From the IMG/VR virus record IMGVR_UViG_3300046333_000120: DNA of 64,000 nucleotides. One strand, 5' to 3'. The translations under genes were made by a program, and so were the position numbers. The stretch is from a virus. Under the pieces are notes generated by a model that was not told where the DNA came from, did not search any database, and saw only the letters and a program-made list of their open reading frames with translations. Each line of letters opens with the position of its first letter. The stretch's first letter is position 1. Shown here one piece after another: positions 51,105 to 64,000 of the stretch.

Positions 51105-51410
51105 ATGAAAACATTTGATGATTATATAAACGAAGGAAAGGTTACTATAGATAACCTAACATTTGCAATACAGACTATTGTAGATAGAAAGGGATTAGCT
51201 ATAACATTTATACCTGATTCAAAAACATTAGATACAATTCATATTAATGGTAAAAACACTATTGTAGATATTATTGAAAAGAAAATGGCTAAAAGTTCTC
51301 CACTAATATCAACATGTATGTGGTTTGAAGCTGGTCATGACGCTGCAGGATTTACGTTTAGAATTGATCCTACTGAATTAACTGACGAATTAACTAAAGC
51401 ATTTAAATAA
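51105..51410 (+). CDS. Small protein with capsid-targeting-like leader
   Basis: MKTFDDYINE; GATATATAA upstream. Confidence 0.65.
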   Translation: MKTFDDYINEGKVTIDNLTFAIQTIVDRKGLAITFIPDSKTLDTIHINGKNTIVDIIEKKMAKSSPLISTCMWFEAGHDAAGFTFRIDPTELTDELTKAFK

Positions 51411-55633: not shown

Positions 55634-57142
55634 TTGATTTTAACATTAACGGAAGACAATCAATTTTTAAGAATTGATGAATCAACTGAACTTGAGTTAG
55701 AGCAGATTAGAATTTCTTTAACAAAACGTATTGACTCTTGGAGATTTAATCCTTTAGTCAAACGAGGTGTGTGGGATGGTTATGTAACATATATTAAAGA
55801 TGATAAATGGATTCCTGCAGGTCTATGGCGATATGTCATGGGAATATGTAAAGACTATAGATTTGAATTAAAAATTAATGGAATCAAACGATTAATAGAT
55901 CCAAATATAAATGCAGAAACATTCGAAACATGGGCATATGGCCTATTTGAAGGTTCTAAGATAACTCCAAGGGATTACCAAGTAGATGCTGCATATAATA
56001 TATTAAAATTTAGAAAGTGTCTTGCTGAACTCGCAACATCAGCAGGTAAGACCCTAATTAGTTTTCTTACAATATCTTATATGCTAGAAAAAGGAACAGC
56101 ATCTAAGATATTATTTATAGTACCAAACGTTTCGCTAGTAGTACAAGCACATGAGGATTTTCATGACTATAACTTTAAAAATAGAATTGACTTAAGAATT
56201 CAACAAATTTTTGCAGGACAAAAGATCAAATCTAATAAGAATATAGTTATTGGTACTTACCAATCGTTAATCAAAAAGGATAAAGAATATTTTGAACAAT
56301 TCGATGCAGTAATTGTAGATGAAACACATAAGGCAAAATCAGCAAGTATTAAAACGATTTTACAAAAATGTACTAATGCTAAATATAGATTTGGTCTTTC
56401 AGGTACAATTCCAAAGGATGGAACTTTAGACAAATTAACATTAATGAGTCAAACTGGTCCTGTAATTGCAGAAGTTAAAGCAAGTTTTTTACAAAAAGAA
56501 GGACACATTGCCAAATGTGCAGTTAAAGTAATTGAAATGGATTATGCAACTGACAAGCAAAAAACAGCATTAATGGAATTAGCTCAAAATAAATATGAGA
56601 ATAAAGATGTATTTGCACTAGAACAAAACTTTGTTATAAATAATGCAGCACGACTTGATTTTATTTCAAATGTAATAGGTAGAGTACCAAAGAATAGTTT
56701 AGTACTTTTTCATAGAATAGAGCATGGTCAAAGGCTTTATGAAAAACTTAGGCAAGAAACTAATAAGAGAGTATTTTATGTAGACGGTGGAACTGCAACT
56801 GATATTAGAGAGGAATACAAAAAGAAAATGGAATCCGGAGAAGAAATTGTTATTGTTGCAAGTTATGGAACCTTTTCAACAGGTATATCAATTAAGAAAA
56901 TTCATAATATATTTTTTACAGAATCTTTTAAATCTGAAGTGATAATTAGACAATCAATTGGACGTGGACTTAGACAACATGAATCAAAGGACAAGGTATT
57001 AATTGTAGATTTTGTGGATAATATTAGAACAGTAGAATGGGATAATTATTTGTATAGACATGGCAAAGCAAGACAAGCAATATACAAACAAGAGAAATTT
57101 GAATACACCATAAAGAAAGTCAATTTTGAAGGAGATATATAA
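55634..57142 (+). CDS. uvsW: SF2 DNA helicase UvsW
   Basis: WDG, PRDYQ, TSAGKT, VDETH, GLSGT, SYGTFSTG, QSIGRGLR; TTG start. Confidence 0.92.
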   Translation: MILTLTEDNQFLRIDESTELELEQIRISLTKRIDSWRFNPLVKRGVWDGYVTYIKDDKWIPAGLWRYVMGICKDYRFELKINGIKRLIDPNINAETFETWAYGLFEGSKITPRDYQVDAAYNILKFRKCLAELATSAGKTLISFLTISYMLEKGTASKILFIVPNVSLVVQAHEDFHDYNFKNRIDLRIQQIFAGQKIKSNKNIVIGTYQSLIKKDKEYFEQFDAVIVDETHKAKSASIKTILQKCTNAKYRFGLSGTIPKDGTLDKLTLMSQTGPVIAEVKASFLQKEGHIAKCAVKVIEMDYATDKQKTALMELAQNKYENKDVFALEQNFVINNAARLDFISNVIGRVPKNSLVLFHRIEHGQRLYEKLRQETNKRVFYVDGGTATDIREEYKKKMESGEEIVIVASYGTFSTGISIKKIHNIFFTESFKSEVIIRQSIGRGLRQHESKDKVLIVDFVDNIRTVEWDNYLYRHGKARQAIYKQEKFEYTIKKVNFEGDI

Positions 57143-57174: not shown

Positions 57175-59124
57175 ATGGCAGAAGTTAATAGAATCTCATC
57201 ATTTAAAAGTTTTTCAGAGATTAAATCTCAAGAAAATGAAACTAAATTAAGAGAAGAAAACAATCTAAAGAAACAAGAAACACTATCTAAAATTGAAGAA
57301 ATTTTAGATGAGATGGGATTAACAAATCTATCTGAAATCGATGAAGATTCTCAGACAGCTTTCATATCTAAATTGTTAGGTAAAGAAACGAATGAAGGTA
57401 ATGCATTTGTATATGCTGCAGGTAAAGCTAAGGCAGATGGGAAAAAAGAATTTGAATTTAATGGTAAAACTTATAAAGTAACTATTAAAGACACTGGCAT
57501 CAAAGAAGATAATGAGATTATCGATGAAGCAATTAGCAGAAGTATATATGATAGAATGGATGGACTTCACAATATTAAAGCTATGAAATCTTTAATTGAT
57601 TCTGCGAAGACTATCTTTGATGATTTATCTGAAGAAATGTTTGAATTTGATGAAATCTGTGATTTCATTGTAATGAAAATAAAGAAAAGTAAATTAGCAG
57701 GAATGTATGAATCTGTAAATGAAGCAAGAATTAAAGCTCCTACTGCACTTCAAGAAATTATTGATGGCAATACATCAAGAGCTGAAGGTATTAAATTATC
57801 AAAACCAATGGCTGAACATATATTGAATTGGATTAATACATCAGCGTATGGTAAAAAGTATGGCAAAGATTTACCGTTAAACATGGTTATTAAGGCTTCA
57901 TTTAGTTGGGGTATTGAAAGAGGTTTAGATCCTAAATTGAAATCTGAATTAGATACATTAAAAGATAGTATTAAAGAATCTGTAATCAATGAAGCCAAAG
58001 TTAAGCAATTTGATGCTGACTTTAATGACATGGTTAAAAATATCAAATCAGGTTATGGTTGGATTGATCCAGAATATGTCGCAGATACTTGGGAAAATTC
58101 AAGTGACTCTGTTGATTTTGAATTAGTTAAAGGAGAAATCTACAAAAGATTAATTGCAGCAGGTTTATTAGCATATCCAAATCCAGATGATGAAGAAAAG
58201 AAAGGTGTGCCTGTTAGAAAATTGCAAGAACTTGGTATTAAAGAATCTATTACAAACGAAGCAACTGTTGAAGTAGATGCAACAGATCCTAAAGATAAAA
58301 ACCTTGCAAAACTATTAAAGAAACATAAAGTTTCGTTGGAAGTAATCAATAAAAATGGACCATCCGGATGGCCTGAAGTTAAATTAACAGGAGATATTAA
58401 AGATCTTAAAGCAGTTTTAGCAGATTCTGAATATGGATGGGATGATGAAGGCTTAGCAGATTATATTGAAGAATCAGTAGTTAATGAAGCTGAGAAATTT
58501 AAAAGTACTAAAGACTTTGAAGATTTCTTAGAAGAAATTGATGGTATGCCAGAGAACAGAATCAAAAGAATCATGGGTAAAGATTATATCGATACTCCAG
58601 GTGGATATAGAGATGAAGCTGATGATTATGATAACGATATTACAGAATACATGATTTCTAACATGGGTAAATCTGATTTTAATGAACTTAAAACATGGTG
58701 GGAAACCAATGTTGCTGAATCATTTATTAGTGAATCAAGTATGGGAGAAATCGATCAAATGGCACAAGATGCTAAAGATTTCAAATCATTTGTAAAAGAA
58801 TTTACAAAAAAATACCATGATTTATCCAATACAGGAGAACCTGGACAATTTAAAGAATGGTTACAATCTGCTTATGATGCAGCAAAAGAAAACATGGATG
58901 AATCATCAGTTACTGAAGCTGAAGTTAGTTCTGATGATGAATTTAAAGAATATGCAATGGCTGTTTTGAAAAAAGCATTTGGAGAAGACTTTGATGAAGC
59001 TAAGGCTGGTGAAGTAGTTGATGGAATTCTTAAAAAATGTGATGGAGACTATGGCGCATGTGTTGGAATGCTAACAAGTTCTCTTGGAGAATCGAATGAT
59101 ACCACATCATCTCAAGAATCTTAA
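57175..59124 (+). CDS. Putative packaged polyprotein of small modules joined by ES-x-x-NEA linkers
   Basis: SSFKSFSE leader; linkers ETNEG, EIIDEA, ESVNEA, ESVINEA, ESITNEA, ESVVNEA, ESFISES, ESSVTEA. Confidence 0.7.
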   Translation: MAEVNRISSFKSFSEIKSQENETKLREENNLKKQETLSKIEEILDEMGLTNLSEIDEDSQTAFISKLLGKETNEGNAFVYAAGKAKADGKKEFEFNGKTYKVTIKDTGIKEDNEIIDEAISRSIYDRMDGLHNIKAMKSLIDSAKTIFDDLSEEMFEFDEICDFIVMKIKKSKLAGMYESVNEARIKAPTALQEIIDGNTSRAEGIKLSKPMAEHILNWINTSAYGKKYGKDLPLNMVIKASFSWGIERGLDPKLKSELDTLKDSIKESVINEAKVKQFDADFNDMVKNIKSGYGWIDPEYVADTWENSSDSVDFELVKGEIYKRLIAAGLLAYPNPDDEEKKGVPVRKLQELGIKESITNEATVEVDATDPKDKNLAKLLKKHKVSLEVINKNGPSGWPEVKLTGDIKDLKAVLADSEYGWDDEGLADYIEESVVNEAEKFKSTKDFEDFLEEIDGMPENRIKRIMGKDYIDTPGGYRDEADDYDNDITEYMISNMGKSDFNELKTWWETNVAESFISESSMGEIDQMAQDAKDFKSFVKEFTKKYHDLSNTGEPGQFKEWLQSAYDAAKENMDESSVTEAEVSSDDEFKEYAMAVLKKAFGEDFDEAKAGEVVDGILKKCDGDYGACVGMLTSSLGESNDTTSSQES

Positions 59125-59140
59125 AATAATTTGAATAAAT

Positions 59141-59190
59141 AATATGACCTGGATTTTTTCTAGGTCATATTTTTTTATTATATTTACAAT
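59141..59190 (+). terminator. Terminator hairpin fused to TATATTTACA promoter-like motif
   Basis: AATATGACCT/AGGTCATATT stem, T-run, then TATATTTACA as in the repeat modules. Confidence 0.6.
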
Positions 59191-60477
59191 ATGAAATCAA
59201 AAATCCTTAATTTTAATCAGTTTTTAACTGAAAAATACGAAGTAAGATTAAATGAACAACTCCTATTAGAAGGAGGTGCTGCAGGACATATGTCTCATCC
59301 ATTTGATGAAAGAGACCTTACATTTAGTGACTTTAAGAAAATAATCGAAGCAGGTCTTTCGGGAGATTTAACATTTGAAGAAGATCCAACTGAAAAAACA
59401 GATGGACAGAATGTCTTTGCTACTGTCCAAGATGGTCAAGTTAAATTTGCAAGAAATAAAACTGAACTTAAGAATCCAATGGATCTTAATACATTTAAAC
59501 AGAAATTTACAGGACATCCAAGCAAAATGGTTGAAGAGACATTTCAATTTGCTGCAGAAGATTTAGCACATGCACTTATTAAATTGTCAGCCAAAGATTT
59601 AGAAGCATTTGATAATGGTAAGAATTTCATGAATATGGAGCTTATATATTCTAAGAATCCTAATGTTATTTATTACGATAGAGACATCATACAGTTTCAT
59701 GGGATTAAAATAACTGACGGTGAGGGTAATATTATCGGAGATGATAATAAATATGCTAGATCTATTGCAAAGGCCTTAGAAGATGTCAAGGCACACATAG
59801 GAAAGGTATTTACTATTATTCCTCCACAAATTATCAAGATAGGTAAGGATATAGATTTTAATATTAATAAATCCAAATTTATTAAAAAGGTAGAAGACTT
59901 AAAGAATCGTTATAAATTAACAGATGCCGATGAGGTTTCTAAATATCATGAAATGTGGTGGAGAGAATTAATAGACCAAAATTTCCCAGATTTAACACAG
60001 GATTTTAAAGAAGGTTTATTATTAAGATGGGCATATGATGATAAGAAAACTCTTAATTTAAGAAGTTTAGATAAAGAACTTGGAAAAGATAAAGCAGAAC
60101 TTATTAAGAAGTTTGATAAAGAAGATGTTAAAAAGAAATATAAAGAAAACATTAGACCATTTGAGGATTTATTTCTTGAATTAGGAAGTGTTATCTTAAA
60201 GAATGCAAGTAACTTTGTTGCTGCAAACCCAAAGGCAGAAATGCAAAGATTACATACCCAGATTAGAACAGAAGCTGAAAATATTAAATTGAATGGTGAT
60301 ACTGCTCAAATTGATAAAGTAATGTCAGAGCTTGAAAGACTTGATAGAATTGGAGGTATTGAATCAATTATTCCTACTGAAGGTATTGTATTTGTTTACA
60401 AAGGAAAAACTATGAAACTTACAGGTACATTTGCTGCCATCAATCAATTAATGGGTATCATTAAGTATGGTAGATAA
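59191..60477 (+). CDS. Leader-bearing ATP-dependent ligase-fold nucleotidyltransferase
   Basis: ILNFNQFLTE leader, LLE/GGAAGHM, motif I EKTDG, motif III MELIY, motif IV EGIVF, motif V MKL. Confidence 0.65.
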   Translation: MKSKILNFNQFLTEKYEVRLNEQLLLEGGAAGHMSHPFDERDLTFSDFKKIIEAGLSGDLTFEEDPTEKTDGQNVFATVQDGQVKFARNKTELKNPMDLNTFKQKFTGHPSKMVEETFQFAAEDLAHALIKLSAKDLEAFDNGKNFMNMELIYSKNPNVIYYDRDIIQFHGIKITDGEGNIIGDDNKYARSIAKALEDVKAHIGKVFTIIPPQIIKIGKDIDFNINKSKFIKKVEDLKNRYKLTDADEVSKYHEMWWRELIDQNFPDLTQDFKEGLLLRWAYDDKKTLNLRSLDKELGKDKAELIKKFDKEDVKKKYKENIRPFEDLFLELGSVILKNASNFVAANPKAEMQRLHTQIRTEAENIKLNGDTAQIDKVMSELERLDRIGGIESIIPTEGIVFVYKGKTMKLTGTFAAINQLMGIIKYGR

Positions 60478-60495: not shown

Positions 60496-60813
60496 ATGAA
60501 ATATACACAAGCGTTTGAATCATTTATTAATGAAGCTACTGATAAACCAACTTTAGATTCTTCAACTGGATTAATCTATTACTTCGATATTCCTTTCACA
60601 TCAGAAGATATGGAAGAATTATTAAGTGCAAGTAAAATGGTATTAAATGGAAAATTTACTCCAAATAAACAGTTTGAAATCCAACCGATGATTTTTATTA
60701 AAGATAAAGTTAATGGTGGAGAACATACATTTAGTGTTACACAAATTGGATTATTAGGCTCTTTTTATAATAAGAACAAAGACAGTGTTGCATCTAGATC
60801 AGATTTCAATTAA
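60496..60813 (+). CDS. Small protein with capsid-targeting-like leader
   Basis: MKYTQAFESFINEA. Confidence 0.65.
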   Translation: MKYTQAFESFINEATDKPTLDSSTGLIYYFDIPFTSEDMEELLSASKMVLNGKFTPNKQFEIQPMIFIKDKVNGGEHTFSVTQIGLLGSFYNKNKDSVASRSDFN

Positions 60814-60828
60814 TATAATTTAATAAAA

Positions 60829-62724
60829 ATGGCATTACAAAAATTAAGAGAGTATTTTAACGAAACCAATAGAGAAAATTTTATTGAAATGTTAAAAAGT
60901 AGGGTGTTAGTGACTGAAAAGATTGCAGCACCATCTTTTCTTTTTAAAAGAAATACAGATGGATTTGAGTTTTATAAGTCTTCAACATCAGATAAATTAA
61001 ATTTTATTGATAGAACAGTTATATCACTATATGAAATGGCAATTAATCATTTACAGAGTTTACCAAGCGATGTAAAATCTCAGTTTCCATTAGATTGGAA
61101 ATTTGGATTTGAATATTTACCAGAAACCAAAGCGTCTAATATAGATTATGCCACAACTCCAACCAATAGTTTAATTCTTACACACATTCAACAATTGAGT
61201 GAAGGTGGAAAACTTAGAAAAACTATTAATGATCCATTAATTTTAAATAAATGGGCTAAATTATTAGAAGTGCAATCTCCCAGTGTTATTTTTGATGGTT
61301 ATATGTCACAACAACAAAGAGATGAACTTCTAACCGTATTATCAATGAGTGATAGAGAATTCTCAGATTCATTTGATTACGCAATAGAAACTGAAGATAA
61401 AACAAGTTTCACTTCAAAGATATTTAAGATGTTTAATCCAAATATCTATTCAACTGCACTAAATCCAGATCTTGAAACTGAAATTGATGGATTAGTTATA
61501 AACTTCATAGAAGCAAAAACAATGAAGTCATTTAAACTTGAAGATTTTTTAAGAGCTTCCGCTGATAAAAGAGATTTAAGAGCTTCTAGCCATACTTACC
61601 AAATTGCTGTAACTGATTTCTTAGAGTATATCATACAGCAAGATCTGAACGATATTAATTTAGAAGATGAACATGCCGATCATAGATACTTAGAATTAAT
61701 GTCAGTTTTATTTAATGGATATATTGATAAAAATTCTTCAAAATATATTGGTGTTAATTTTGAAAGTGCAGAATTTTCAGAAGCACAATCATTTAGATTA
61801 AATACCAAATATATTAAAAATGAAAAAACATTAAAATTTGTAAATAATGAAGTACTTGCTGAATTATTTAAAATGGTTTTAAGTTCTTTTAGAAAGAAAA
61901 GAACTAAAGAATCAGACTTAATTGACAAAGATACAATGTCAAGAATGAATGAAATTATTGATGCAATTAATGAAAAGATATTTGTAGAAAATACAGATGA
62001 AAATGCAATATACGATTATACTAATTTTATGTTACATAATAAGATTAAATCTTCAGTAAATTTAAATGAAGCTCTTACAGTAAAACACATGGAACAAGGT
62101 AAACAACCCGTAAATATGTTTGTTGGTAGATTTCAACCATTCACATTAGGGCACGCTAAGGTATTAGAAACAATGAATAAGGAAAATGGATTTCCAGTAG
62201 TTGTATTTTTAGTTAAATCTAAGGTTAAAAAGGGCGAGGAGTTTAGTAAACCATACGATGAAAAAACACAAGTTGATATGTTTAATCATGTCAAAAAACA
62301 ATATCCTTTTTTAAAGGAAATATATGTTGTTCCTAATGCTGCAATCGATACATTATATAATGAGATGAGACCGAAATATGAACCAGTATTATGGGGAACA
62401 GGATCTGATAGAATGAAAGGATATGGATATATGGTTAATAATGATTCTTATAGAGACCAATTAAATGCTAGGGCAGATTTTGGATTATTTGAGATTCCAA
62501 GAACAGACGATAATATTTCAGCAACCAAGGTTAGAAACGCAATGTTAGATGGAAATGAAAAAGATTTTCAGACAATGACACCTAAAGCTATTCATGGAAT
62601 GTATAAAGAATTAAAGTCAAAATTAGAAGATGCTATTGGAGTTGTTCACGAAAATATTGAAAATTCAGAAGAAATCATGACATTTGAACAATTCATAAAT
62701 AAATCTAAATATATAATCTTATAA
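60829..62724 (+). CDS. Fusion of degenerate ligase-fold domain and HxGH cytidylyltransferase-like nucleotidyltransferase
   Basis: N-part VTEKI..FEYL..IDGLVI..FKL; LNEA linker; GRFQPFTLGH, GSDR, ISATKVR. Confidence 0.7.
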   Translation: MALQKLREYFNETNRENFIEMLKSRVLVTEKIAAPSFLFKRNTDGFEFYKSSTSDKLNFIDRTVISLYEMAINHLQSLPSDVKSQFPLDWKFGFEYLPETKASNIDYATTPTNSLILTHIQQLSEGGKLRKTINDPLILNKWAKLLEVQSPSVIFDGYMSQQQRDELLTVLSMSDREFSDSFDYAIETEDKTSFTSKIFKMFNPNIYSTALNPDLETEIDGLVINFIEAKTMKSFKLEDFLRASADKRDLRASSHTYQIAVTDFLEYIIQQDLNDINLEDEHADHRYLELMSVLFNGYIDKNSSKYIGVNFESAEFSEAQSFRLNTKYIKNEKTLKFVNNEVLAELFKMVLSSFRKKRTKESDLIDKDTMSRMNEIIDAINEKIFVENTDENAIYDYTNFMLHNKIKSSVNLNEALTVKHMEQGKQPVNMFVGRFQPFTLGHAKVLETMNKENGFPVVVFLVKSKVKKGEEFSKPYDEKTQVDMFNHVKKQYPFLKEIYVVPNAAIDTLYNEMRPKYEPVLWGTGSDRMKGYGYMVNNDSYRDQLNARADFGLFEIPRTDDNISATKVRNAMLDGNEKDFQTMTPKAIHGMYKELKSKLEDAIGVVHENIENSEEIMTFEQFINKSKYIIL

Positions 62725-62740
62725 AATAAAATTAAAATAA

Positions 62741-64000
62741 ATGAGCACATTTGATAAATATCTAAATGACATGAATAATACGTTAAATGAGAGGTCAATT
62801 AACAAAATTCAAGCAGAATTTACAGATGTAGTAACTAAAATGTCAGCAATGGCAAAAGAATATGCTACTACAGAAGGAGATGAAAAAACAAATATTCTTA
62901 CAGAATTAAAAGGATTAACTGCAAAGAAAAATGAGTTAATAAAGGAACTCGATAATGCAGTAGCAGGAAAGGATAAAGATGTCCAATTAGCTATTAAAGA
63001 ATCTGAAATTAATGAAGCATATGGAAGCTCTAATCCTCATGCAAAACCAGCGGGTCTTGATAAAGAAGAAACTATGGTTATAGCTCAAAAATTTGCAGAT
63101 GCAATGTCTAAAGCAGAAGGAGCTAAAGTTACTGTAAATAAAAGAACATTAGAGGAAGATTCATTTGATTTAGATTACAATGGAGAAGAATTTGATGGAG
63201 GTTCATATAACATCTACCAAAATGGAAATGTTATGAATATGGCATTAAGAGATAATCCAGTATATGGTAGAAAAAACGATAGTGTAGATACTATTGCAAA
63301 GAATATGAAAAAATTCATGAGCGAATCAGTAGCTAATGAAGGTAGACATATTACTCTTAAAAGACAATACACTGGAAACCATCCTGCAACCACCGTTGGA
63401 AAAATTGCAGCTGTTAGAAATAAAGTGTTAGAGGCAATTAAAGATGGTAAAATACCACAAGAACAATTTGAAAAAATAGTTTCTGAAATTTCTAATAACT
63501 CTAAAAGATGGACAAAAAATAACTCAAAATATTTTACAATATCAGAAGACGGTGTTTCACTTTCTGGTTTTGGTAAAAAAGTACTTTCAAGTATAACAGT
63601 TAATGAAGCAGATTTTAAAGAATTTCCAAAAGGTTATAATCCAGAAATATGGGTACCTGGTAATTTTGATAAAGCTATTTCCAAATATTCAAATGCAAAA
63701 TTAACTAGAAAAATTGTATTGGATGCTGCTAAAAAATGGGATGTTACACCCGAAGATGCTATTAATTATGTAGAATTTGGATGGCATGTAGATTTATCAG
63801 AAAATATAAATATAAATATAAATATGAAAACAAAATTTATTTACGAATCATTTAGCGAATTCATTGGAGCTTTAAATGAATCTAATGAAATATTAAATGA
63901 AGCATTTGCTTCTACAAAACTTGCAAGTCTTTTAACAGGCGCAAATGCAATGCCAAAGGATCTTCCTGCTGCATTCTATAATATGTCAAAATTAGCTCTT
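62741..64000 (+). CDS. Second putative packaged polyprotein (runs off the window; not in ORF track)
   Basis: Open for 420 codons: MSTFDKYLN..TLNE, ESEINEA, ESVANEG, ITVNEA, then internal MKTKFIYESFSEFIGALNESNEILNEA. Confidence 0.75.
   Translation, partial: MSTFDKYLNDMNNTLNERSINKIQAEFTDVVTKMSAMAKEYATTEGDEKTNILTELKGLTAKKNELIKELDNAVAGKDKDVQLAIKESEINEAYGSSNPHAKPAGLDKEETMVIAQKFADAMSKAEGAKVTVNKRTLEEDSFDLDYNGEEFDGGSYNIYQNGNVMNMALRDNPVYGRKNDSVDTIAKNMKKFMSESVANEGRHITLKRQYTGNHPATTVGKIAAVRNKVLEAIKDGKIPQEQFEKIVSEISNNSKRWTKNNSKYFTISEDGVSLSGFGKKVLSSITVNEADFKEFPKGYNPEIWVPGNFDKAISKYSNAKLTRKIVLDAAKKWDVTPEDAINYVEFGWHVDLSENINININMKTKFIYESFSEFIGALNESNEILNEAFASTKLASLLTGANAMPKDLPAAFYNMSKLAL

Follow-up and report, generated by a model that had tools for sequence, protein, structure and literature searches.

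A candidate capsid-targeted polyprotein in a large T4-like phage: a hypervariable gene behind uvsW whose modules are joined by putative prohead protease sites

What kind of protein is encoded by a phage gene in which short, similar linkers recur between segments that do not resemble each other? The question is raised by the open reading frame (ORF) at positions 57175-59124 of a 64,000-nucleotide (nt) stretch of the IMG/VR record IMGVR_UViG_3300046333_000120. This stretch, called the window below, has a low G+C content (30%), suggestive of an aquatic host, carries every gene on one strand, and comes from a large T4-like phage. It also encodes a gp32-type single-stranded DNA-binding protein (SSB), a primase, UvsY and UvsW, and the ORF lies directly 3' of uvsW, followed by a ligase-like gene. 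With a probability of roughly 60%, the analysis described here favours a capsid-targeted polyprotein that would be processed by the prohead protease, in other words a version of the internal-protein (IP) system of T4 in which the units are concatenated.

A preliminary description of this DNA, made from the sequence alone, had quoted eight linkers, all of which are found where it placed them (Table 1). It had also counted about eight unrelated modules between evenly spaced linkers. The modules are indeed unrelated, as BLASTP at E 1e-3 gives no match between any of them, but there are nine (74, 44, 65, 90, 89, 76, 82, 61 and 68 amino acids, aa) and the linkers stand 44-90 aa apart. An AlphaFold2 (AF2) model of the whole protein, built from 39 aligned sequences, has a mean predicted local distance difference test score (pLDDT) of 65 and a predicted template modelling score (pTM) of 0.25; a segment with pLDDT<50 is present at every junction, between better-predicted modules, and aa 274-356 and 582-638 reach a pLDDT of about 90. 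As modelled, the polyprotein is thus a string of beads and not one domain. The single continuous fold that had been named as an argument against separate units is not what is predicted, given the low pTM and the pLDDT dip at each linker.

The junction motif is rare. In its strict form, E-[ST]-x(1-3)-[NTDS]-E-[AS], it is found at six places in the polyprotein ORF, once at the N-terminus of a 105-aa ORF starting at 60496, and nowhere else in the six frames of the 64-kb window. Among 120 listed homologues, whose linker consensus is (L/I/V)-x-E-S-V-V-N-E-A, a 7-mer form of the motif is found 267 times, versus 1.2 in shuffled sequences. A junction set free of motif bias was obtained by projecting the module starts of the polyprotein onto homologous proteins without using the motif, which gave 321 distinct upstream contexts; in 314 of these the boundary is Glu followed by Ala, Gly or Ser (in a few cases Glu or Thr). 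In protease-site numbering, P3 is Val, Ile or Leu in 95% of the junctions, P2 is Asn in 68%, with Thr, Tyr and Val next, P1 is Glu in 100% and never Asp (background frequency of Glu, 11.6%), and P1' is Ala in 54%, Gly in 39% and Ser in 5%. About 70% of the junctions carry, in addition, a Glu-Ser pair 5-6 residues upstream that is preceded by an aliphatic residue and constitutes a second candidate site. The fixed positions of these predicted sites are those read by T4 gp21-type proteases; the prohead proteases of T4, phiKZ, 201phi2-1 and SPN3US all cleave after Glu (PMC5694885). At the nucleotide level, nine distinct 21-mers code for the same linker peptide, and selection therefore acts at least partly on the peptide. 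Linker codons are nevertheless biased beyond amino-acid identity, with GCT used for Ala in 13 of 16 non-independent copies (31% in the background) and TCA for Ser in 12 of 16 (34%). Owing to this bias, the junctions may double as recombination joints, which is compatible with processing at the same positions.

Further support for independent modules comes from their occurrence as separate genes. Proteins of 93-150 aa consist of one or two modules behind the leader MK..(T/L)(F/Y)-E-x-F-(I/L/V)-N-E, followed by A or G, and the module sequence behind this leader is the same as in the polyprotein (see modules 4, 5 and 7 in Table 1). Since leader and module sequence are joined in this way in separate genes, the internal linker of the polyprotein corresponds to the C-terminal "processing" half of the leader. 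In the T4 genome (NC_000866), IPII and IPIII start with MKTYQEFIAE↓A and IPI has MKTFKEF...ITE↓A (the arrow marks the cut in T4 and, for the phages studied here, the predicted cut), and the cut sites of gp23 and gp24 are FLTE↓A and LLRE↓S, respectively. Residues 4 and 7 of the T4 capsid targeting sequence (CTS) drive targeting and residues 8 and 10 processing, which is blocked by Asp at position 10 (PMC9026906). The leader found here agrees with the CTS at each position, both having the pattern aromatic-x-x-aromatic-aliphatic-x-Glu-small. This full pattern is seen on stand-alone modules 4, 5 and 7 and on neighbouring genes. The N-terminus of the polyprotein carries only a degenerate version of it (F-K-S-F-S-E, aa 10-15, 57202-57219), within which the F-x-x-F leader of the preliminary description was recovered at aa 10-13 (SFKSFSE) and is conserved in homologues. 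The internal junctions have lost the two aromatic residues and kept aliphatic-x-Glu-small, as would fit a chain that has a single signal for targeting and a separate signal for cutting at each module.

The leader is also widespread outside of the polyprotein. A CTS-like leader is present on 8 of the 71 ORFs of the window, versus 1.1 expected, and in a 236-kb relative about 23 of 299 genes (about 8%) begin with a near-invariant tag, MK(H/K)(I/V)KLFE(Q/E)F(I/L/V)NE. A tag on so many genes implies either an unusually large packaged proteome or a wider, or other, role of the tag. Six consecutive tagged genes, several with one or two internal junctions, lie together at 148026-151503 of another locus (L093, in relative G001), and form a second, smaller hotspot of the same grammar.

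Is a protease of the appropriate type encoded by these phages? All five large relatives, the near-identical G005 among them, encode a Peptidase_S77 domain (PF03420, above cut-off). They include the record of L001, whose flanking genes share 93-98% identity with those of the window and which is essentially the same phage. A gp23-type major capsid protein (MCP) was found in three of the five. The 236-kb relative shows the order portal, 116-aa acidic ORF, 640-aa protease ORF, MCP, and the protease ORF, of about 640 aa, ends in a long, acidic, scaffold-like tail. The acidic gene between portal and protease (113-116 aa), at the position of T4 gp67/gp68, starts with the tag (MKIIKTFE.F) in all five relatives. 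In a census of the generalised linker motif over 72,800 aa of the 236-kb relative, 19 occurrences were counted. The polyprotein accounts for 8 of these and other tagged genes for 7; two weak ones are found elsewhere, and the remaining two belong to the protease ORF, where they lie in its own C-terminal extension (YLAESYNE↓G). The MCP propeptide was considered as a positive control for the extended motif and set aside: the MCP N-terminus of the relatives has LINE↓A at residues 4-8, aligned with the start of the T4 gp23 propeptide, and this site is ambiguous, the likely maturation site being a plain L-x-E. As a separate observation, a second, short S77-like match (132-aa ORF, E 1.7e-8) is located far from the head cluster in G001 (L082, 156418-156672), and LR756500.1, an uncultured phage of 462 kb, also has a weak second S77 match.

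How variable is the gene? A word-indexed search returned 638 homologues of 395-1,116 aa, covering 14-99% of the query, and phmmer against 1.84 billion cluster representatives gave 1,052 matches at E<=1e-3 and 599 at E<=1e-10, from metagenomes. The gene order tube-SSB-primase-UvsY-UvsW-polyprotein-ligase-like (428 aa)-cytidylyltransferase recurs in about 60 IMG/VR loci, including those in which UvsW identity has fallen to 56%. Within this fixed setting, the polyprotein gene diverges far faster than its flanks: where these are 93-98% identical, it is 87% identical over only its first 56%, and where they are about 80% identical, it is 38% identical. Among the 120 homologues, the terminal modules, i.e., the first one and the helical one at the end, are constant; the modules between them are combined freely, and at least 45 module families form at least 75 architectures. 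Exchange follows the junctions. In pairwise comparisons with close homologues, blocks of similarity stop at aa 363 and start at aa 355 and aa 576, all of which are junction positions. Over 747 BLASTP blocks, 71% of internal starts, as well as 57% of the ends (73% when the variable C-terminal tail is left out), lie no more than 8 residues from a junction; the zone so defined takes up 21% of the protein. Orthologues with invariant module content had been named beforehand as an observation that would speak against the polyprotein; what is seen instead is that modules are gained, lost and re-ordered at junctions. As with T4-type internal proteins, unrelated putative cargo sequences occupy a hypervariable hotspot. 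Because module turnover is fast in a fixed genomic slot, a role of the modules in an arms race, as counter-defence proteins, is suggested, speculatively.

Two further features of the family were noted. In nearly all close family members the stop codon directly follows ...QES or ...QEA, irrespective of the final module (aa 645-649 in the polyprotein of the window); the stop codon may here cut short a junction that had just begun. In distant marine homologues, found as an ORF behind uvsW (L029-L062), the middle is highly acidic, low in complexity and repetitive, and full leaders are embedded in it, some with an internal Met (e.g., ...IMSFDKFVNE↓A).

The modules are orphans in the searches performed. 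By the profile and structure checks proposed in the preliminary description, the modules are predicted to fold separately, and no Pfam, PDB or fold match was obtained for any of them. Pfam and PHROGs were searched with the whole protein and with eight segments (modules 1 and 2 together): no Pfam family was detected, and the only PHROGs match was phrog_5922, an 85-aa phage protein without annotated function, at aa 383-432. Pfam gave no match for ten long homologues either, and the names "PIN domain", "acetyltransferase" and "FliE" given by JGI (Joint Genome Institute) were not reproduced on these ten. No peptidase domain was detected by Pfam in the protein, its segments or the ten long homologues. 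A sequence search of the PDB gave no match for the polyprotein. Foldseek with the whole model against viral and PDB libraries returned nothing at E<=0.001 besides one uncharacterised 79-aa phage protein, itself a stand-alone module, and a search of the ESM Atlas with two modules brought up nothing that could serve as a lead. Module 5 modelled alone has three helices and a hairpin (AF2, pLDDT 83); its assignment as RecX-repeat- or winged-helix-like was rejected, its best PDB match by VIA-align having a Z of only 5.4, which is too weak. As the modules are orphan and mostly acidic, the label "effector" is without support, and an effector function is speculative.

Taken as a mechanism, these features would fit together as follows. 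The precursor would consist of nine independently folding mini-domains, which its N-terminal aromatic-x-x-aromatic leader and conserved module 1 would probably bring into the assembling prohead. Each junction would be a cleavage site for the S77, gp21-like protease, with an aliphatic residue at P3, any residue (mostly Asn) at P2, Glu at P1 and a small residue at P1'. The protease would cut the chain into modules that stay in the head and reach the host along with the DNA. The junction would be a remnant of the leader borne by each module as a separate gene; fused and split versions would then yield the same mature products, and modules could be shuffled at junctions. The interpretation in the preliminary description is partly supported. 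The cleavage-site anatomy, the independence of the modules, the leader, the S77 protease and the hypervariable locus speak strongly for its cleavage-site and module logic, and not for delivery or an effector role; cleavage, packaging and injection themselves we infer from sequence. A broader picture can be drawn, which we hold as a tentative and rather doubtful one: a widespread clade of large T4-like phages would load dozens of proteins by a two-part targeting and cutting grammar, and its hotspot would chain up to a dozen orphan mini-effectors, diced by the prohead protease after packaging. As all modules share the junction, recombination there would produce a combinatorial array of injected counter-defence proteins, and any module could be an inhibitor of some host immune system.

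Several observations weigh against a packaged and processed polyprotein. Its own leader is degenerate and one residue shorter than the T4 spacing. The gene sits in a replication and recombination block, seemingly at the end of the UvsY-UvsW unit, and a T4-type late promoter in conserved form was not found for it. The linker is conserved beyond the known needs of T4 gp21 (E-S at P6-P5, N at P2), and the likely maturation site in the MCP of the relatives is an L-x-E that does not belong to a longer ES..NE motif. Tagged genes make up about 8% of the total, the gene for the 428-aa ligase-like enzyme among them, and neither a family nor a fold could be detected for the modules, which are mostly acidic. 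A tblastn search of 50,697 cultured or deposited phage records gave no match, and the phage itself is uncultured. Finally, ClpP is encoded by three of the four large relatives searched.

This last point, together with the presence of the tag on so many genes, enzymes included, is what could be expected if the tag and linkers were read outside the capsid, either by a phage ClpC-ClpP with adaptors, the tag then being a degron for timed removal, or by a cytoplasmic endopeptidase. Co-occurrence does not separate the proteases: the large relatives encode both S77 and ClpP, and the marine sequences are fragmentary contigs. Clp proteases are, however, processive and without P1-Glu specificity, the internal junctions lack the N-terminal half of the tag, and the tag is present on the gene between portal and protease; moreover, in T4, which has no ClpCP, a tag of the same logic has been linked by experiment to gp21 and the prohead core. 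Reading by such a cytoplasmic machine is thus very unlikely. Another possibility is that the chain is never cut and is a multi-domain cytoplasmic protein, whose linkers are relic leaders of fused small genes, kept as flexible linkers or as recombination homology. Neither relic leaders nor recombination joints would be expected to retain so strictly an aliphatic P3, a Glu P1 and a small P1' in 314 of 321 divergent junctions while P2, P4 and P5 vary, or to lose the targeting aromatics yet keep the processing half; the motif is found in the protease ORF itself, and nine 21-mers for one peptide indicate that selection is, at least in part, at the peptide level. The coincidence of breakpoints with linkers, the codon bias of the 16 non-independent copies, and the location among replication genes without a conserved late promoter would nonetheless suit an uncut chain, which we regard as improbable.

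Cleavage by the prohead protease could also serve assembly, the polyprotein being a core or scaffold filler, or a substrate that buffers or times the protease, with fragments that are expelled or inert. The protein is acidic like T4 gp67 and the internal peptides, it has many close-set sites, as in gp22, its N- and C-terminal modules are constant, and the middle of the marine homologues is of the acidic, low-complexity kind described above; by positional analogy, the T4 gene inh, for the protease inhibitor Inh, also lies beside uvsW, although Inh has no sequence similarity to the polyprotein. Against such a role, which appears unlikely, the head cluster already has a scaffold-like acidic protease extension and a gp67-like gene, the modules are folded, individually conserved and present as separate tagged genes, and their extreme turnover is unexpected for a structural filler. 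The polyprotein gene is, in addition, not part of the head cluster by portal, protease and MCP, but always lies between uvsW and the ligase-like gene. Its multiple candidate gp21-type sites and acidic composition are those of a scaffold or core protein.

How does a capsid-targeted polyprotein compare with known systems? Its closest counterpart is the set of internal proteins of T4 and the T-even phages. There, Ip1-3 have only the packaging leader in common and are encoded in hotspots, and all have recently been shown to inhibit GmrSD enzymes, a different one in each case (PMC12373910); the CTS system is also treated in PMC3012670. Both systems share the leader grammar (MK, aromatic-x-x-aromatic, aliphatic-x-Glu, Ala), a gp21-type protease, and small, mutually unrelated cargo in a hypervariable hotspot away from the head genes. 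The ip genes of T4 likewise lie outside its head cluster. The T-even Ips are single genes; here, up to nine or more putative cargo units share one ORF, and every junction repeats the part of the leader that would serve processing. None of the T4 IPs has sequence homology to a polyprotein module, and IPII and IPIII are basic whereas the modules are mostly acidic. The clade also differs in that about 8% of its genes are tagged, and its system is known from sequence alone.

The polyvalent proteins (Iyer, Burroughs, Anand, de Souza and Aravind, 2017; PMC5512222) are large chains of recognisable enzymatic domains, for which processing by an in-chain zincin-like metallopeptidase was proposed. They resemble the polyprotein in having many disparate domains per chain, a predicted delivery with the DNA and processing into functional units. 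The polyprotein shares this multi-domain layout, but it has neither recognisable disparate activities nor an in-chain zincin-like metallopeptidase or any other recognisable peptidase or domain, its modules are only 44-90 aa long, and processing would fall to a separate enzyme acting in trans, the prohead protease, with a conserved linker as its target. T4 gp22, gp67 and gp68 and the inner-body or ejection proteins of phiKZ and SPN3US are likewise cut several times after Glu. These head proteins, however, lose propeptides or become peptides and are not shuffled arrays of conserved domains, and the polyprotein gene is, unlike theirs, hypervariable and outside the head cluster. From a viral polyprotein, a viral protease releases several mature proteins; here, the units are independent (stand-alone genes, AF2 model) and the putative sites are conserved (junction logo), and release of the units is a prediction. 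No description of a phage polyprotein of CTS-type cargo, or of such a linker, was found in the literature. Judging from the features above, the T4 IP logic is probably concatenated and combinatorial in this uncultured clade.

If this is true, the internal-protein principle, which in the model phage T4 concerns three single genes, would hold for a large environmental clade as well, packaged cargo in the form of a phage polyprotein would be a new architecture, and a sequence rule would predict the injected proteome of uncultured phages straight from their genomes. The 45 or more orphan module families in rapid turnover would then be prime candidates for new anti-defence proteins, and engineered phages could deliver proteins by means of tag plus junction, as a cassette for packaging and release, a use to which the T4 CTS is already put. 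Should the modules turn out to have no effector role, the strictness of the junction logo would still make it a specificity profile for an uncharacterised branch of S77.

Table 1. Coordinates of the polyprotein, its modules and candidate junctions, and of other features discussed (window positions unless a relative is named; the arrow marks the predicted cut).
Feature	Position	Strand	Remarks
Whole polyprotein ORF (P0001)	57175-59124	+	649 aa, no internal stops, acidic, isoelectric point (pI) 4.6
Module 1	57175-57396	+	aa 1-74; family-defining N-terminal module, long helix (10-46 in AF2 model); in 120/120 listed homologues, N-terminus conserved across loci
Junction 1, ETNE↓G	57385-57399	+	pLDDT dip at aa 70-75; ends of homology blocks cluster at aa 70-79
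Module 2	57397-57528	+	aa 75-118; small helix and beta-hairpin unit containing GKKEFEFNGKTYKV; also occurs in other phage proteins (L063-L073)
Junction 2, EIIDE↓A	57514-57531	+	homologues have ESIDEA
Module 3	57529-57723	+	aa 119-183; variable, 32/120 homologues
Junction 3, ESVNE↓A	57709-57726	+	pLDDT <50 at aa 171-184
Module 4	57724-57993	+	aa 184-273; sole basic module, pI 8.9; stand-alone form P0161 behind leader MKHIKTFESFLNE↓A
Junction 4, ESVINE↓A	57976-57996	+	motif, AF2 model, homology-block ends
Module 5	57994-58260	+	aa 274-362; three helices and hairpin; stand-alone genes with leader, 93-102 aa (P0221, P0237, P0200, P0197, P0228)
Junction 5, ESITNE↓A	58243-58263	+	exact recombination breakpoint versus P0003, P0012, P0015
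Module 6	58261-58488	+	aa 363-438; alpha/beta; matches phrog_5922; follows a C-terminal-type module in P0012 and P0013, i.e., permuted order
Junction 6, ESVVNE↓A	58471-58491	+	equals family consensus
Module 7	58489-58734	+	aa 439-520; stand-alone form P0127 behind leader MKNHIPTFENFINE↓A
Junction 7, ESFISE↓S	58717-58737	+	motif
Module 8	58735-58917	+	aa 521-581; rare, 3/120 homologues
Junction 8, ESSVTE↓A	58900-58920	+	motif
Module 9	58918-59124	+	aa 582-649; conserved helical bundle, pLDDT about 90; ends ...QES; only part recognisable in the distant marine clade (L029-L062)
Terminator-like hairpin	59141-59171	+	13-bp stem and T run, right behind polyprotein stop codon
Tagged stand-alone 105-aa ORF	60496-60813	+	N-terminal leader ends ESFINE↓A
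Second beads-on-a-string gene	62741-64000	+	leaves window; at least 4 same-type junctions and one internal full leader
Leader-bearing ORF starts	11411, 12225, 24547, 51105, 51410, 59191, 60496; 14734	+	14734 doubtful
Baseplate wedge, tail-fibre and tail-tube genes	27920-51089		within window
Tagged acidic ORF between portal and protease	7506-7853 of L086 (G001)	-	also L077-L081

The surroundings of the polyprotein gene provide some additional information. The terminator-like hairpin behind its stop codon implies that the gene closes a transcription unit. Upstream, TATAAATA at 57138, 30 nt before the gene, was considered as a late promoter and rejected, the pattern being unenriched in the window and unconserved in relatives. 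The 122-aa leader-bearing ORF at 51410, just behind the tail-tube gene, is kept in all relatives. By UvsW, the closest deposited phage is LR756500.1 (55% identity), which has tagged genes yet no polyprotein beside uvsW.

The ligase-like gene on the other side adjoins the hotspot in all relatives, LR756500.1 included. Its 428-aa product (59191-60477, + strand) carries the tag at its N-terminus along with the motifs GGAAGHM.HPFD and EKTDGQN (KxDG type), and looks, by these motifs, like a nucleotidyltransferase or ligase; Pfam, PHROG and PDB sequence searches gave no match for it. Next to the 105-aa tagged ORF, a 631-aa protein (60829-62724, + strand) contains a cytidylyltransferase-like domain at aa 430-531, with a junction-type VNLNE↓A at aa 412-418, just ahead of this domain, and a leader-like C-terminal end (...MTFEQFINK...). 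It could be a precursor in two parts; alternatively, recombination could have left the leader-like end as a scar. The second beads-on-a-string gene follows; its junctions include ESEINE↓A (aa 86-93), ESVANE↓G (aa 195-201) and ITVNE↓A (aa 284-291), its complete internal leader is at aa 363-391, and its aa 18-93 are homologous to modules within the polyproteins of other phages.

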